Source: a virus. Taken from it: a stretch of 64,000 nucleotides of DNA. Positions 1 through 14,827 of this stretch are shown here, piece after piece. The stretch lies in the IMG/VR virus record IMGVR_UViG_3300027782_000047, positions 1 to 64,000 of that record; one strand, written 5' to 3'. Numbering within the stretch: position 1 is the stretch's first letter; each line of letters begins with the position of its first letter. A program made the translations under genes and the position numbers. The notes below the pieces were generated by a model. That model worked only from the letters and a program-made list of their open reading frames with translations, was not told the DNA's origin and searched no databases.

Positions 1-45
1 TCATCCGTGAGAGAGTAATCTCCTATATCAAGTGTGTTTCTATAT

Positions 46-177
46 GGTTAATGTTATCTGCAGGTAACATCCATGCTGGGGAGTAATTAACCTCAGGAAC
101 TCGTAGTCTTCTAATGGTTAAGAAAGCCCCGCTATAAGGGGCGAATGCAAGTTTCGAAATCTTGCCTACAATGAGTT
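46..177 (+). ncRNA. candidate structured RNA containing a tRNA-like module (103-169) without CCA
   Basis: Hairpins ATGTTATC/GGTAACAT and CTGGGG/CCTCAG. GGTTAAT (46-52) is complementary to ATTAACC (86-92). A cloverleaf follows, with D arm TTCT/AGAA, anticodon-like stem GCCCC/GGGGC, T arm GCAAG-TTTCGAAAT-CTTGC, and closing stems GTAG/CTAC and AACTC/GAGTT. Confidence 0.5.
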
Positions 178-180
178 TGT

Positions 181-300
181 CATATAAAAACATTCTTGAC
201 GGACAGTAACCGCAAAGGCGCGGCCAATGTTCGGTCTCCTGACAGAGGCGAAAGATTCTTTGTGTCAGCATTGAATTAATATTGAGAGTGTTTCTATATG
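181..300 (+). ncRNA. candidate structured ncRNA closed by a long terminal stem
   Basis: CATATAAAAACATTCTT (181-197) pairs with GAGAGTGTTTCTATATG (284-300) with one mismatch. Internal helices are GACGGACA/TGTTCGGTC and CTGACA/TGTCAG, with GCAA and GAAA loops. The 3' arm GTGTTTCTATATG also occurs at 34-46. Confidence 0.55.
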
Positions 301-374
301 CGGGTATGGTGCTAGTGGTAACACAAGACCTTGCCAAGGTTTAGTTGTGGGTTCGATTCCCACTACCCGCTCCA
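300..374 (+). tRNA. tRNA-Gly(GCC)
   Basis: Cloverleaf, anticodon loop TTGCCAA, GTTCGATTC T-loop, encoded CCA. Confidence 0.95.
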
Positions 375-382
375 GATTTTAT

Positions 383-457
383 GTGGTTGTTAGTTTAGTG
401 GTAAAACCGCGGGTTGTGATTCCGCTATCACGGGTTCGATTCCCGTACATCCACCCA
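383..457 (+). tRNA. tRNA-His(GTG)
   Basis: G-1:C73 pair, anticodon arm GCGGG-TTGTGAT-TCCGC, T-loop, CCA. Confidence 0.93.
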
Positions 458-463
458 ACATAT

Positions 464-538
464 GCCTCGTTAACTCAGCGGTAGAGTAACTCCTTTACAC
501 GGAGAAGGTCGGCAGTTCGATCCTGTCACGAGGTACCA
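464..538 (+). tRNA. tRNA-Val(TAC)
   Basis: Anticodon loop TTTACAC, GTTCGATC T-loop, ACCA end. Confidence 0.93.
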
Positions 539-544
539 AATTAT

Positions 545-621
545 GCCCAAGTGACGAAATTGGCAAACGTGTCTCTCTCAAAAGGAGAATTTTGTGGGTT
601 CGAATCCCATCTTGGGTACCA
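545..621 (+). tRNA. tRNA-Leu(CAA), short variable loop
   Basis: Anticodon arm TCTCT-CTCAAAA-GGAGA, Leu-type D arm, ACCA end. Confidence 0.9.
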
Positions 622-622
622 T

Positions 623-696
623 GCTCTCATAGTATAATGGCATTACACATCCTTGGTAAGGATGAAAACCAAGTTCAATTCTTGGTGGGAGCACCA
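623..696 (+). tRNA. tRNA-Thr(GGT)
   Basis: Anticodon arm CATCC-TTGGTAA-GGATG, ACCA end. Confidence 0.93.
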
Positions 697-700
697 ATAA

Positions 701-776
701 GCCTCTTAAGCTAATCTGGTGAAAGCACTGGACTGAAAATCCAGGGAGTCTGGTTCGAAACCAGAAAGAGGCACCA
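701..776 (+). tRNA. tRNA-Phe(GAA)
   Basis: Anticodon arm CTGGA-CTGAAAA-TCCAG, T arm TCTGG-TTCGAAA-CCAGA, ACCA end. Confidence 0.92.
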
Positions 777-781
777 AACAT

Positions 782-858
782 GCGGATGTGATGGAATAGG
801 TATACATATCAGACTTAAAATCTGAGTTCTGTGGGTTCAAGTCCCACCATCCGTACCA
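782..858 (+). tRNA. tRNA-Leu(TAA), short variable loop
   Basis: Anticodon arm TCAGA-CTTAAAA-TCTGA, ACCA end. Confidence 0.9.
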
Positions 859-879
859 ATATAAACTCTACAAATTTAT

Positions 880-954
880 CTGGCGTTCGTTCAATGGACA
901 GGACAGCATTCTTCTAAAGTGCGAATGGGGGTTCGATTCCCTCACGCCAGGCCA
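880..954 (+). tRNA. tRNA-Arg(TCT)
   Basis: Acceptor CTGGCGT/ACGCCAG, anticodon arm GCATT-CTTCTAA-AGTGC, GCCA end. Confidence 0.92.
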
Positions 955-1269
955 TCAATTTTTATTCTCTTTAATTTGCTCTTTTATCACCTTAGAGCAA
1001 TTTGCACCTTTATGGAAGTGCGTATGAAATATTCTCTGTTTGCTTGCATTGTTGCAAGTGTATTCGCAAACCTTTATTTCATTTTCGATTTTCTGATTCG
1101 TTAAATTACAAGTAGCCGTTATCACTTGATACGGCTTTTCTTTTTTGGCCATCTGTGATTGAATGGTTATTGGTACATTCAAATTAATATTCACGGTGTC
1201 AGGAATCATAGGCGCAAGTATAGTGACTGCTGTACCAACTGCTATCAAAACTTTTTGATATTTGTTCAT
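955..1269 (-). CDS. hypothetical secreted or membrane-anchored protein with 4 Cys
   Basis: 104 aa ORF with an N-terminal hydrophobic segment; ATGA overlap with the upstream gene. Confidence 0.7.
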   Translation of the reverse strand: MNKYQKVLIAVGTAVTILAPMIPDTVNINLNVPITIQSQMAKKEKPYQVITATCNLTNQKIENEIKVCEYTCNNASKQRIFHTHFHKGANCSKVIKEQIKENKN

Positions 1270-6420: not shown

Positions 6421-7135
6421 GTGTATTGAATCCGTTGACCGTCAAACATATGATGATTTGACGCATTACGTTTTCATGGATGGTATTCAGTATTGGAAAG
6501 AAATTGATGATATCATTGAAGGTTCTGAAAAAGTCCGTGTAATAAAAATTGAAGAAAATGTAGGCAAAGGATGGTACGGCCATCGTGTTTACTCGGCGTG
6601 TTCATTTTTGGTAAATGCTGATGTAATCATTTACCTTGATGAAGATAATTGGATTGATCCGTGTCACGTTGAAAAACTTGTTAAGGTGATACAAAAAGGA
6701 AATGATTGGGCATATAGCCTTAGAAAGATTTATGATAAAGATGAAAATTTACTATGTGAAGACAATTGCGAAAGTCTTGGAAAGTGGCCTGTTTTCTTTG
6801 ACGAGAAAGTTAACCATATTGATACTTCCAGCTTTGCTATTAAGCGTGATATTGCTGTTCGCATCGGTCATGCATGGTATGGGCAGTGGGGTGCTGATAG
6901 ACAATTTTATCAAGCACTATCAACCCATTTTCCCAATTACGATTGCTCCAATGCACACACTCTATGCTATCGTTTAGATGGCAATCCGAATTCTGTAAAA
7001 GCAGATTTCTTTGAAAGCGGCAACGCTATCAATGCGACAAAATATAATGGAAGTTTCCCATGGAAAAAGAACAAGTTAATGCAAATAGAACCGCGCTCAT
7101 TACCGGTGGGTCAGGTTATCTCGGTTCGCACTTAA
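6365..7135 (+). CDS. glycosyltransferase family 2
   Basis: VAVITPT, CIESVDRQTY, YLDEDN (DxD), WGADRQF. Confidence 0.9.
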   Translation: MKMKVAVITPTIGTKYLSKCIESVDRQTYDDLTHYVFMDGIQYWKEIDDIIEGSEKVRVIKIEENVGKGWYGHRVYSACSFLVNADVIIYLDEDNWIDPCHVEKLVKVIQKGNDWAYSLRKIYDKDENLLCEDNCESLGKWPVFFDEKVNHIDTSSFAIKRDIAVRIGHAWYGQWGADRQFYQALSTHFPNYDCSNAHTLCYRLDGNPNSVKADFFESGNAINATKYNGSFPWKKNKLMQIEPRSLPVGQVISVRT

Positions 7136-8025
7136 GCAAAAAACTAAAGCAACAAGGATGGAAAGTCATCATCCTTGACATAAAAGAACCCACACATTCT
7201 TATGTGGATTCATTTTATTGTGGTGACATTCGGCGAAAGTATTTCCTAGAAAGTATTTTTCAAAATCATTTTGTGGATGTTGTATTCCATCTCGCTGGTC
7301 GGATTGAAGTTGGTGAATCAGTAAAAGATCCTACCGAATTTTGGGAAGTCAATGTTGGCGGAACAGTCTCAGTTTTAAATGCGATGAAAAGAAATGGCGT
7401 GAATACAATCATCTTTTCTTCAACTGCGGGTGTCTATTGGTCAGGTGCAATACAAATACCAGAAGATGAATGCACCACAAGCAACAATCCATACAGTAAT
7501 AGTAAAATGTCCTGTGAATATGCTATTGAAGATTCTGGTATGAATTATGTAATTTTTAGGTATTTCAATCTGGCTGGTGCTGATCCTGACGGAGAAATGG
7601 GTGAAAGCCATGAGCCAGAAACGCATCTAATTCCCAGAATTCTACAAAATCTAAATACGGTTGAAGTGTATGGAAATGACTATGACACACCAGATGGAAC
7701 ATGCGTTAGAGATTATGTCCACGTTTGTGATGTTGTTGATGCACACTTAGAAGCGGTAAAATATCTAGACAATTATGGCGAATCTGGAGTTTTTAATCTA
7801 GGTTCAGGAGTTGGTTATAGTGTTCTTGATGTTATAAAAACAGTTGAAAAAGTAAGCAGTAAAAAAGTAAAATATAACATAGTGCCAAGGAGAGAAGGCG
7901 ATCCAAGTCATTTGGTCGCTGATATCACCAAAGCAAAAACCATTTTGAATTTTAATCCAAAACATGATATATCATCCATCATCAAGTCGGCCTATGAGTG
8001 GGAAGAGATTAGGTCAAACACCTGA
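7060..8025 (+). CDS. galE: UDP-glucose 4-epimerase
   Basis: TGGSGYLGSH, FSSTA, YSNSK, RYFNLAGA, ETHLIP, DGTCVRDYVHV. Confidence 0.95.
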   Translation: MEKEQVNANRTALITGGSGYLGSHLSKKLKQQGWKVIILDIKEPTHSYVDSFYCGDIRRKYFLESIFQNHFVDVVFHLAGRIEVGESVKDPTEFWEVNVGGTVSVLNAMKRNGVNTIIFSSTAGVYWSGAIQIPEDECTTSNNPYSNSKMSCEYAIEDSGMNYVIFRYFNLAGADPDGEMGESHEPETHLIPRILQNLNTVEVYGNDYDTPDGTCVRDYVHVCDVVDAHLEAVKYLDNYGESGVFNLGSGVGYSVLDVIKTVEKVSSKKVKYNIVPRREGDPSHLVADITKAKTILNFNPKHDISSIIKSAYEWEEIRSNT

Positions 8026-8578
8026 AGACATACCATTCAACGTTCAAGATAAGTTTGACAATGTATTCCTTGACAATCATATCTTTTTCTTAAGTGGTGA
8101 AATAAATGAAGAAAACATTCTCAAAGCAACACAATGGTTAGTCTATGAGAATGCATACAATGATCCAGAAAAACTTTTACAGTTGTATATCAATTCTACC
8201 GGCGGTGATTTGTATCAAGCACTTGGTTTAATTGATATGATGCGTATTAGTAAAAACAGAATCCGAACAATCGGCGTTGGTGCTGTTATGTCGGCTGCTT
8301 TTCTAATATTTGCATCTGGCGAAAAAGGCGAAAGATTAATTTCCAAAAATTGTAGTTTGATGTGTCACCAGTATTCTGACACCTACGAAGGAAAGCACCA
8401 CGATTTAAAGTCATTCACAAAAGAGGCTGAATTGACTAATCAAAGAATGTTGAATATACTTCAAGAGGCTACGGGCATGAGCGCACGTAATGTTAAGTCC
8501 AAACTTTTATCACCTAGCGATGTTTGGTTGACAGCCGATGAAGTTATTAAACTGGGTGTAGCAGACCGCATTCTTTAA
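7994..8578 (+). CDS. clpP: ClpP-family serine protease subunit
   Basis: LYINSTGG; catalytic Ser in VMSAAF, His in MCHQ, Asp in DVWLTADE; GVADRI. Confidence 0.88.
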   Translation: MSGKRLGQTPEDIPFNVQDKFDNVFLDNHIFFLSGEINEENILKATQWLVYENAYNDPEKLLQLYINSTGGDLYQALGLIDMMRISKNRIRTIGVGAVMSAAFLIFASGEKGERLISKNCSLMCHQYSDTYEGKHHDLKSFTKEAELTNQRMLNILQEATGMSARNVKSKLLSPSDVWLTADEVIKLGVADRIL

Positions 8579-13819: not shown

Positions 13820-14488
13820 ATGTTTACGTATTGCCCACCCAAGAAACTAGAAGACTTAAAATCAGAAACACTAGAGAATGGAAGATTTTATGTAACGCCA
13901 GATGGTAAAAGATTACCATCGGTAACAACCGTCTTGGGTGCAATGGGCAAGAAAGCTATCTATGAATGGCGACAACGTGTTGGTGCAGAGGAAGCAAATC
14001 GTATTTCACGGATTGCTTCTGGTCGTGGTACACGTATGCATACGCTATGCGAAAAGTATTTGAACAATCAAGAGTTGGGCAAACCAATGCCTGATGCGCT
14101 GGAATTATTTAAAAAGGTACAACCATATCTAAATAAAATCAACAACATTCAGTATCAAGAATGTGCATTGTGGTCAACAAAACTTGGCATGGCTGGGCGT
14201 GTAGATTGTATTGCGGAATATGATGGTGTTCTTTCTGTCATTGATTTTAAAACATCCAGCAGAGTGAAAACTGCGGAAGATATTCCTGCATATTTTGCTC
14301 AATGTACCGCTTATGCATTGATGTATGAAGAATTGATTGGTGTAAGAATTGACCAAATAGTTGTTATCATGGCTGTACAGGAAGATAACCCAATCATCTT
14401 TATTGAACCAATGAGAAAACATATAAATACTTTACTAGAGTACATTAGTTTTTATCGTGAAAAAAACAATTATTACCTGACAAACTAG
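13820..14488 (+). CDS. PD-(D/E)xK exonuclease (Cas4-like/exonuclease A)
   Basis: LPSVTTVL, RGTRMH, AGRVDCI, IDFKTS, QCTAYA. Confidence 0.88.
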   Translation: MFTYCPPKKLEDLKSETLENGRFYVTPDGKRLPSVTTVLGAMGKKAIYEWRQRVGAEEANRISRIASGRGTRMHTLCEKYLNNQELGKPMPDALELFKKVQPYLNKINNIQYQECALWSTKLGMAGRVDCIAEYDGVLSVIDFKTSSRVKTAEDIPAYFAQCTAYALMYEELIGVRIDQIVVIMAVQEDNPIIFIEPMRKHINTLLEYISFYREKNNYYLTN

Positions 14489-14505
14489 TTTTGTTGTGTT
14501 ATAAT
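14477..14505 (+). promoter_or_regulatory. promoter for tmRNA (additional late TATAAATA at 14422-14429)
   Basis: CTGACA-17-TATAAT with TG extension. Confidence 0.65.
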
Positions 14506-14509
14506 TAGT

Positions 14510-14805
14510 GTTATTGCTGTATGAAGCAAAGAGAAAAGTGTTCTGGACGGGGGTGCGAATCCCCCCACCTCCACCAGAAGTGCATGTATTAGATGAAAGA
14601 AACCATTTTATGGGCTCTAATGGGTGTGCTTCTGATGGGGGTGACCTAGATTCGACAGGGCAACAAGTACATGCGTGGACAGCACGGTAGGCGATGACCG
14701 TAAATCAAGCAAAAAAGTAAACGCAAACGACTCACGTTTCGAATTGGCAGCCTAAACGCTGACTAGGGTTTCGGTAGGTTTCCTCGTAACAGAATAACCT
14801 ACCAA
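14510..14805 (+). ncRNA. ssrA: circularly permuted (two-piece) tmRNA, tag ANDSRFELAA
   Basis: The acceptor piece ends ...GACGGGGGTGCGAATCCCCCCACCTCCACCA (14576), before the coding piece starting GGGGGTGACCTAGATTCGAC (14637). Tag ORF is 14723-14755. The intervening segment is hairpin-closed (CAGAAGTGCAT/GTGTGCTTCTG). Confidence 0.9.
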
Positions 14806-14827
14806 TTTATTAACAAGGAGTTTTATT

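Follow-up and report, generated by a model that had tools for sequence, protein, structure and literature searches.

The 64,000-nt window analyzed here is the first 64 kb of a 108,667-bp IMG/VR virus record (IMGVR_UViG_3300027782_000047; 62% complete) that we judge, from its baseplate wedge, tail, and T4-type RNase H genes, to come from a T4-like phage. Window base 1 is also base 1 of the contig, and because the opposite contig end is protein-coding, there is no circular continuation and no sequence upstream. At this end of the record lie the subjects of this report, namely, units of predicted RNA that are closed by a long stem between a 5′ arm and a 3′ arm and that carry an interior, or head, between the arms. 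Eight co-oriented tRNA genes follow these units directly on the same strand. The features in this part of the window are as follows.

1 to 30, + strand: 3′ part of the head of unit 0, truncated where the contig begins, with the GAGA-GUAA-UCUC hairpin at 11 to 22 (from the sequence and a homologue in a related locus, L105).

31 to 47, + strand: 3′ arm of unit 0, AGTGTGTTTCTATATGG, which is exactly the family consensus.

48 to 179, + strand: unit A, a conserved tRNA-shaped RNA (from its fold, its homologues, and their consensus fold).

180 to 196, + strand: 5′ arm of unit B, TCATATAAAAACATTCT (consensus, CCATATAAAAACACATT); in most family members, the first three bases are the CCA of a tRNA.

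197 to 284, + strand: head of unit B, with three hairpins (from the fold and two homologous heads in other phage contigs).

285 to 301, + strand: 3′ arm of unit B, AGAGTGTTTCTATATGC; includes G300, which is base 1 of tRNA-Gly.

300 to 954, + strand: eight tRNA genes, each with an encoded CCA (ARAGORN and Rfam), in the order Gly-GCC, His, Val-UAC, Leu-CAA, Thr-GGU, Phe, Leu-UAA, and Arg-UCU.

An initial annotation of the window, made from the sequence, had singled out a repeat, GTGTTTCTATATG, and exact copies of it do lie at 34 to 46 and 288 to 300, with a near-complement, ATGTTTTTATATG, on the minus strand at 181 to 193; there is no further exact or good copy of GTGTTTCTATATG in the 108.7-kb record. 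The repeat is the core of a 17-nt 3′ arm, AGUGUGUUUCUAUAUGG, whose partner is the 5′ arm CCAUAUAAAAACACAUU (window copy at 180 to 196). The closing stem of about 17 bp that had been drawn between 181 to 197 and 284 to 300 is present, with 14 Watson-Crick pairs, two G·U pairs, and one A·C mismatch (187/294). Folded alone, positions 179 to 302 form this stem around three hairpins (−41.6 kcal/mol; z = −4.3; matched by none of 200 shuffles). The GNRA-type loops described for the multihelix interior are not recovered: in unit B as predicted to fold, neither GUAA (207 to 210) nor GAAA (252 to 255) forms the tetraloop of a hairpin. The head by itself (198 to 283) folds with a z-score of −2.25, and its alignment with the two homologous heads (A1; L103:6639-6764 and L011:11033-11162) contains seven pairs with compensatory changes. 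When positions 1 to 300 are folded whole, 34 to 46 pairs with 181 to 193 instead, because either neighbor can pair with each arm type, and comparative data are therefore needed to choose the pairing. Comparison of sequences across the family settles the predicted pairing in the order 5′ arm, interior, 3′ arm, as originally drawn, and cotranscriptional folding would favor the same pairing, each 5′ arm being free when its own 3′ arm emerges.

The first copy of the repeat had been thought to follow a GAGA-GUAA-UCUC hairpin and to close a unit starting before the window. The hairpin is found at 11 to 22, and a full homologue of unit 0 (L105:7933-8011) supplies the missing part: there, a tRNA-Lys(UUU) is directly followed by the predicted 5′ arm, CCATATAGAAACAC, and then by the head and the 3′ arm. 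The small hairpin itself covaries between the two, being GAGA/UCUC in the window and UAAA/UUUA in L105.

The units in the window belong to a large family. Viral contigs were scanned with the 16-mer AGNGTGTTTCTATATG (at least 119 loci) and, independently, with the 5′-arm 17-mer CCATATAAAAACACATT (at least 120 loci), and a structure-aware search for whole units applied a pairing filter of at least 14 of 17 pairs. Counts given here are of units and loci among the matches listed, and totals are lower bounds. There are at least 352 distinct units, on the tRNA strand, in at least 162 IMG/VR loci, with one to eight units per locus and interiors of 4 to 227 nt (median, 53 nt). In nearly all loci matching AGNGTGTTTCTATATG, N is T and is followed by G, so these are not chance matches, and CCATATAAAAACAC sits 50 to 120 nt upstream of almost every 3′ arm. 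Among 69 5′-arm matches in previously unseen loci, 63 have a 3′ partner within 260 nt; the six without a partner look like chance matches in AT-rich DNA. In two complete genomes, units are restricted to the tRNA array, and the family occurs in the tRNA gene arrays of many uncultured T4-like phages. Among cultured phages, blastn searches of window positions 1 to 1000 and 176 to 305 against 50,697 phage records returned only tRNAs or chance matches of 19 to 26 nt, and a two-arm pattern run over 185,579 prokaryotic species genomes returned a single match, on a 1.5-kb contig. That contig (L126; CAZQNP010000058.1, 1478 bp) is binned in a metagenome-assembled genome of the freshwater actinobacterium “Ca. 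Planktophila”; it is probably a misbinned phage fragment and hints at a freshwater origin of the family.

The initial annotation had proposed that a conserved closing stem unites such units and that this stem should covary in relatives, and both conservation and covariation are seen across 143 nonredundant units. In this set, 94.6% of the cells in the stem are paired, versus 86.6% in shuffles; both sides have changed in 15 of the 17 stem pairs (159 cells, versus 34 expected); and the covariation score, 0.262, exceeds those of shuffles (0.115) and slid partners (≤0.085). None of 500 shuffles reached any of these measures. At positions 2, 11, 12, 13, 14, and 16, the intermediates read on the tRNA-sense strand are G·U in 342 cells and A·C in 15, and all 44 of the C·A readings at position 14 fall on the antisense strand. 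Nearly every hairpin passed the filter on both strands, so this asymmetry is not a product of the filter. That G·U intermediates occur almost wholly on the tRNA-sense strand indicates that selection acts on RNA, i.e., on the sense transcript; a hairpin in sense single-stranded DNA is a less likely target.

The stem is 17 to 20 bp long and often extends to tRNA positions 73 and 72. Position 8 is an A·C mismatch in 47% of units and A-U, G-C, or U-A in 40%, and the lower stem occurs as whole variant “alleles” (e.g., CCAUAUUGAAGCAC/GUGUUUCAAUAUGG and CUAUUCUAAAACAC/GUGUUUUAGAAUAG). Its most invariant part is the upper stem, AAACACAUU/AGUGUGUUU. This near-invariance exceeds what generic recognition by RNase III, RNase E, or RNase P needs and thereby suggests a sequence-specific partner. 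As judged by sequence, the stem does provide the roughly two turns of mostly A-U-rich double-stranded RNA expected of an RNase III substrate.

All counted units lie on the tRNA strand. The initial annotation had each unit ending exactly where the next RNA starts, and this holds both in the window, where the 3′ arm of unit B meets base 1 of tRNA-Gly (G300, by ARAGORN), and across the family, in which the stem meets tRNA ends precisely. The CCA of the 5′ arm is the upstream tRNA's own CCA in 191 of the 352 listed units (103 of 144 in a stricter set). On the other side, the following tRNA begins with the final G or GG of the 3′ arm in 47 units and no more than 15 nt from that arm in 22 others, the distance from 3′ arm to tRNA start varying from 0 to 12 nt. 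The 161 listed units that abut no tRNA lie in tandem or behind tRNA-like RNAs, as do both units of the window. Tandem units follow one another at a spacing of about 3 nt, the longest run being six units, in one locus (L124), and some units adjoin noncanonical tRNA-shaped RNAs.

The tRNAs that precede units are a narrow selection. Among the 191 listed units that abut a tRNA, 85 follow Lys(UUU), 33 follow Gln(UUG), and 24 follow Glu(UUC); together, these three slots hold 142 units (74%), versus 13% of all tRNAs. When tRNAs are clustered at 90% identity, a unit is present in 41 of 54 Lys clusters (76%), 21 of 63 Glu clusters (33%), and 17 of 64 Gln clusters (27%), with at most 16% for any other species and none for ten of them. 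These three are the tRNAs with xm5s2U34 and the usual targets of anticodon nucleases. The Lys(UUU), Glu(UUC), and Gln(UUG) tRNAs that are followed by units mostly have a weak first acceptor pair (G1·U72, U1-A72, or U1·U72), and their bases 72 and 73 (UA) can lengthen the unit stem through a UA after the 3′ arm.

Inside the stem, the variability of interiors that had been predicted is pronounced: the 340 interiors of the listed units fall into about 182 families, of which 110 have a single member. The heads share no universal motif, and enriched k-mers are weak and tRNA-like. Measured against simple shuffles, heads fold with a mean z-score of −0.5, the sense strand folding better than the antisense strand (Wilcoxon P = 5 × 10−11). 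Individual head families covary, with compensatory changes in 18 of 36 pairs in one alignment (A3) and 11 of 29 in another (A4). The same head type can be found behind different tRNAs and ahead of different genes; nine head types are common to the Lys and Gln slots, and the Lys slot alone holds 58 unrelated heads. Heads shared among different neighbors are thus exchangeable modules, and their swapping would most simply occur by recombination within the arms. Nor are the heads all tRNA remnants enclosed by an acceptor-like stem, a reading that we rejected because only some 12 to 20 of 144 have a T-arm-like hairpin.

A hairpin-closed insert of much the same design occurs elsewhere in the window, in a permuted transfer-messenger RNA (tmRNA) gene with the following features.

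14463 to 14809: permuted two-piece tmRNA gene (RF01850; 135 bits), encoding the tag ANDSRFELAA, of betaproteobacterial type.

14577 to 14636, + strand: intervening segment of the tmRNA gene, 60 nt (ARAGORN, Rfam, and fold; comparison with related phages).

The type of this tmRNA hints at a betaproteobacterial host. Its intervening segment lies between a CCA (14574 to 14576) and GGGGG (from 14637) and is closed by a 10-bp stem, CAGAAGUGCA/UGUGCUUCUG, that runs from the A of the CCA to 2 nt short of G+1. The same design, with arms related to those of the units, recurs in six permuted tmRNA genes of related loci, such that all seven of the segments examined are closed by a hairpin from CCA to G+1. 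In L020, the arms of the segment, CCAGAAACACAUU...AGUGUGUUUCUGAUGGG, are near-identical to unit arms and were found by the unit search; the corresponding arms are AAAGCACAU in L114 and AAAACGCAU, with a compensating change, in L154. The segment is 160 nt long in one gene (L156:693-1177:-) and 60 to 88 nt long in the other six. When permuted tmRNA genes are transcribed, tRNA-processing enzymes cut the RNA, and the intervening segment is missing from its mature form (PMC11915505). Like this segment (RF04321, RF01850; PMC11915505), units are bounded by an encoded CCA on one side and the G+1 of the following RNA piece on the other, have a closing stem that starts from or next to the CCA and ends 0 to 3 nt before G+1, and vary in the sequence and length of the interior. 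Unlike it, the window units (1 to 47 and 180 to 301) sit between separate tRNA or tRNA-like genes rather than inside a permuted gene, and units occur in tandem, have a UAUA stem extension, prefer three tRNAs, and carry some 180 head families, some of them conserved in structure. The intervening segment is the best anchor for the mechanism proposed below.

The reading that we favor, at slightly better than even chances, is that the units are intervening, hairpin-closed passenger RNAs that are excised from the transcript of the tRNA operon by the processing of tRNA ends. A unit would be transcribed together with the tRNAs, its 5′ arm, (A)CCAUAUAAAAACACAUU, starting with the CCA of the upstream tRNA and its 3′ arm, AGUGUGUUUCUAUAUGG, ending at or a few bases before the next G+1. 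Once the 3′ arm was made, the arms would pair as a stem of 17 to 20 bp, folding the unit away from the flanking tRNAs and setting both processing sites at the base of the stem. An RNase P cut at the downstream G+1 would free the 3′ side; the 5′ side would be released by 3′-end maturation of the upstream tRNA, through a host endonuclease such as RNase III or RNase E with subsequent trimming or through a phage nuclease. The product, an exonuclease-resistant hairpin RNA of about 70 to 130 nt with a variable head, would be removed by the same route as the intervening segment of two-piece tmRNA genes. The stem would serve as a common handle and the heads as cargo, swapped between slots and phages by recombination in the arms; such heads might act in trans, possibly as decoys or regulators in a tRNA-centered arms race with host defenses.

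Several points weigh against excised passenger RNAs. Pairing at the stem base is in competition with the first pairs of the acceptor stems on either side, and pairing between a leader and CCA hinders RNase P. The gene for RNase III is absent from all five large carrier genomes, two of which are complete. The preference for the Lys, Gln, and Glu slots falls outside the passenger-RNA model, and the upper stem is near-invariant even across phages whose tRNAs are more than 10% different. Heads are only modestly structured, so many of them could be neutral filler, and the pairing filter inflates the percentage of paired cells in the stem (94.6%), although not the strand asymmetry or the double changes. 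A bolder proposal, which we think unlikely, is that of a plug-and-socket small-RNA system, in which stems are sockets placed behind xm5s2U34 tRNAs and read by a dedicated factor (one candidate being the PF04308 protein encoded in many of the arrays), and exchanged, structured heads have anti-defense roles in trans. If true, it would be the RNA counterpart of an array of anti-defense gene cassettes, and the heads, once released, would be decoys or inhibitors of host tRNA-targeting or other defenses.

Other explanations start from particular features of the units. The slot preference could mean that the unit acts in cis to lock the 3′ ends of tRNA-Lys(UUU), tRNA-Gln(UUG), and tRNA-Glu(UUC), the heads being secondary. 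The stem, which takes in the CCA and often reaches positions 73 and 72, would sequester the CCA, keep the tRNA 3′ extended, and block 3′ exonucleases until a specific endonuclease acts, thereby timing, protecting, or boosting exactly those tRNAs that are attacked by host anticodon nucleases. Such a lock would account for the placement of 142 of the 191 listed tRNA-abutting units behind three tRNAs that make up 13% of the total, a preference that survives the collapse at 90% identity (Lys, 41/54; Glu, 21/63; Gln, 17/64; others, ≤16%), as well as for the 58 unrelated heads of the Lys slot, which imply that the slot itself is the conserved feature. The same arrays contain genes resembling those for RNA repair (metallophosphoesterase, P-loop kinase, and phosphatase), and tRNA-Lys(UUU) is the target of PrrC (PMC10264068). 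We nevertheless consider a lock rather improbable, given that 161 of the 352 listed units abut no tRNA, that head families are conserved and covary on their own, and that tmRNA intervening segments are closed by the same type of stem. A similarly small probability attaches to a DNA-level element, the arms of which would bound a miniature mobile cassette, either as terminal inverted repeats or as sites of recombination, along the lines of miniature inverted-repeat transposable elements, integron attC sites, or the PeSL elements of T4-like phages, with RNA foldability merely making insertion between tRNAs harmless. Near-invariant arms around hypervariable interiors, tandem arrays of up to six units, interiors that are common to several slots or recur with different neighbors, and HNH endonuclease genes within the arrays are all consistent with this, and PeSL elements provide a precedent in which short conserved motifs mediate modular shuffling in T4-like genomes (PMC4122927). 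The units also have an attC-like form, in that each is an imperfect inverted repeat of similar size with a variable center and a frequent central mismatch, but the attC cores RYYYAAC/GTTRRRY cannot be read in the arms CCATATAAAAACACATT/AGTGTGTTTCTATATGG. A large excess of G·U over A·C on the transcribed strand only is not expected of a double-stranded or cruciform site, although a hairpin in single-stranded sense DNA could give rise to such a bias. Furthermore, the register with CCA and G+1 is exact, the orientation relative to tRNAs is fixed, and the heads carry compensatory changes of their own. No recombinase or transposase is among the 20 commonest neighbor families, no dedicated search for integrases having been made.

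The arms might also be read as regulatory signals, the unit being a promoter and/or terminator for tRNA suboperons that is PeSL-like, carries a T4-late-like TATAAAAA box, or is T7-like (...CTATA, then GG). The 5′ arm does contain TATAAAAA, which resembles the T4 late box, TATAAATA, and the 3′ arm ends in ...CTATATGG immediately ahead of the +1 of the next RNA. We regard this as very unlikely: the motif is found nowhere else in the 108.7-kb record, including upstream of late structural genes, and is confined to the tRNA array in complete genomes; no U-tract follows the stem; sigma-70-like matches are not above chance; the gap between 3′ arm and tRNA start varies from 0 to 12 nt; and a covarying complement at variable distance is not needed for a promoter. 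We give next to no credence to the unit as a self-cleaving ribozyme for trimming the upstream tRNA at its 3′ trailer in the manner of the hepatitis delta virus (HDV)-like theta ribozymes of gut phages. These provide a precedent for the position of the units, whose 5′ end is likewise flush with a tRNA 3′ end, but only 4.5% of theta-associated tRNAs encode CCA (PMC10879173), whereas unit-associated tRNAs do so. In addition, the units have no conserved core, their heads forming some 180 unrelated families with some interiors of just 4 to 12 nt, and they match no Rfam ribozyme family.

The initial annotation could not match the units to a known class, and a search of window positions 1 to 299 against Rfam 15, at gathering thresholds and at E ≤ 10, also gives nothing; elsewhere in the window, only tRNA and tmRNA are found. 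A region with four units in another locus (L038:2500-4600) yields only tRNA-type Rfam matches. The sole match to YrlA (RF02553) scores 20 bits against a cutoff of 69 bits and falls on true tRNAs at 404 to 521, not on 1 to 299. A literature search found no description of such units, with anonymous entries possible in a catalogue of 10,006 viral structured-RNA candidates (PMC10690425). This phage RNA family appears, then, to be undescribed. We rate the spacer or passenger RNAs of stable-RNA operons as the nearest known kind, with several properties being unprecedented, and by the features compared, the units belong to none of the systems considered here.

Among these systems are species 1 and 2 (rnaC and rnaD) of T4 and the stable RNAs of T5, which are non-tRNA RNAs of phage tRNA clusters that are cotranscribed with tRNAs and released by tRNA processing. 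Like them, the units are predicted non-tRNA RNAs inside a T4-type tRNA cluster, but the searches of the 50,697 phage records with window positions 1 to 1000 and 176 to 305 show no sequence similarity between the two. The T4 and T5 RNAs are not known to have a common closing stem or to be interchangeable. RNase III acts on the processing stems of rRNA operons and excises intervening sequences, which are sporadic and variable, from 23S rRNA; these stems are not sequence-invariant across taxa. The units resemble them in that an RNA cut (for the units, by prediction) from a stable-RNA precursor is enclosed in a long duplex of leader and trailer, and they differ in having near-invariant arms and in being carried by phages that, among five large genomes, lack an RNase III of their own.

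Theta ribozymes are HDV-like, lie next to phage tRNAs, and have been proposed to function in 3′-trailer processing (PMC10879173). As with the units, their 5′ end abuts a tRNA 3′ end, whereas they have a conserved catalytic fold and tRNAs mostly without CCA, and the units have no conserved core and tRNAs that encode CCA. Membership among HDV-like or theta ribozymes, which have a nested double-pseudoknot core, was rejected on the lack of any Rfam ribozyme match and on the unrelatedness of the interiors. PeSL elements are promoter and terminator motifs of T4-like phages that flank protein genes (PMC2839356, PMC4122927). The units share with them short, conserved, repeated motifs in variable T4-like regions where unrelated modules are exchanged, but unit arms are neither promoter nor terminator and form an RNA stem that flanks RNA genes. 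Membership in PeSL was also rejected, given promoter- and terminator-like sites at chance level, one weak 9-of-12 match on the arms, and no U-tract.

Phage tRNA arrays are now viewed as counterdefense equipment, and the non-tRNA RNAs within them are almost unstudied. The family described here can be recognized from its sequence alone, by a fixed stem, precise predicted processing junctions, and exchangeable structured cargo, and it ties the spacers of tRNA operons to the excised segment of two-piece tmRNA genes. With its arms as a probe, candidate phage small RNAs can be collected by the hundreds, and the units offer a natural scaffold for releasing stable small RNAs. The slot preference, in turn, makes it testable whether phages attach extra RNA functions or controls to those tRNAs that are targeted by anticodon nucleases.

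Between the two units of the window, unit A sits between a 3′ arm and the next 5′ arm, the place that tRNAs occupy elsewhere. It has hairpins at 51 to 70 and at 76 to 96, the latter with a conserved loop, AGUAAUUAA; in homologues, the hairpin loop AGUAAUUA(A) is invariant and its stem covaries. Positions 97 to 178 are cloverleaf-like, with a bulged acceptor-like stem of 9 to 10 bp (3-nt AAU bulge), a D arm, a variable “anticodon” arm (loop GCUAUAA), and a T arm, and they lack a CCA. Among the listed loci are 11 homologues, in which the D and T arms are conserved and the anticodon-like loop is different every time; of the 25 pairs in the consensus fold (A5), 10 show compensatory changes. We rejected 97 to 178 as a canonical tRNA on account of its bulged acceptor-like stem, its nonconserved anticodon-like loop, and its lack of CCA. 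ARAGORN makes no call on unit A by default and calls it only at a relaxed threshold, and there is no match to the Rfam tRNA model at E ≤ 10. Another conserved, noncanonical tRNA-shaped RNA, about 140 nt long, occupies the space from a 3′ arm to the following 5′ arm in two other loci (L066, oriented 327-467, and L038:3101-3240); it has two T-arm-like hairpins and an acceptor-like closing stem and scores only 21 bits with the Rfam tRNA model.

As for the wider context, no convincing promoter or terminator lies between the tRNAs of the window's array, where sigma-70-like and terminator-like sites are not above chance. In addition to the permuted tmRNA, the window encodes a ClpP protease homologue (7964 to 8578). 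Related loci have arrays of 20 to 35 tRNAs, and 1834 of 1846 tRNAs in the first 119 loci listed share one strand. Protein genes within the arrays, on the same strand as the tRNAs, include an RNase H-like PF04308 gene in 46 of 176 loci and a metallophosphoesterase gene in 40, along with genes for dCMP deaminase, HNH endonucleases, a dual-specificity phosphatase, and a P-loop kinase; T4 core genes lie alongside. The PF04308 (YkuK family) gene is the commonest protein gene within arrays and is invariably on the tRNA strand (e.g., L025:2976-3629:- and 45 other loci, and G002:C1:45352-45783). It is present in four of the five large carrier genomes, and its product is a candidate RNA-processing factor. 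There is no match to PF04308 in the record analyzed here, which is 62% complete and cut within the tRNA array. Genes for the metallophosphoesterase, the P-loop (AAA_33) kinase, and the dual-specificity phosphatase recur in arrays (L065:3377-4120:+, L067:5412-5888:+, L101:6156-6725:+, and relatives), a set reminiscent of RNA end-healing and repair enzymes. Finally, ARAGORN makes 56 calls in related arrays of a 92-nt “tRNA-Ile(UAU)” with a long variable arm (at L103, oriented 6920-7011, and also in L124, L044, L048, and L009); a class-II-shaped tRNA bearing an Ile anticodon is unusual.

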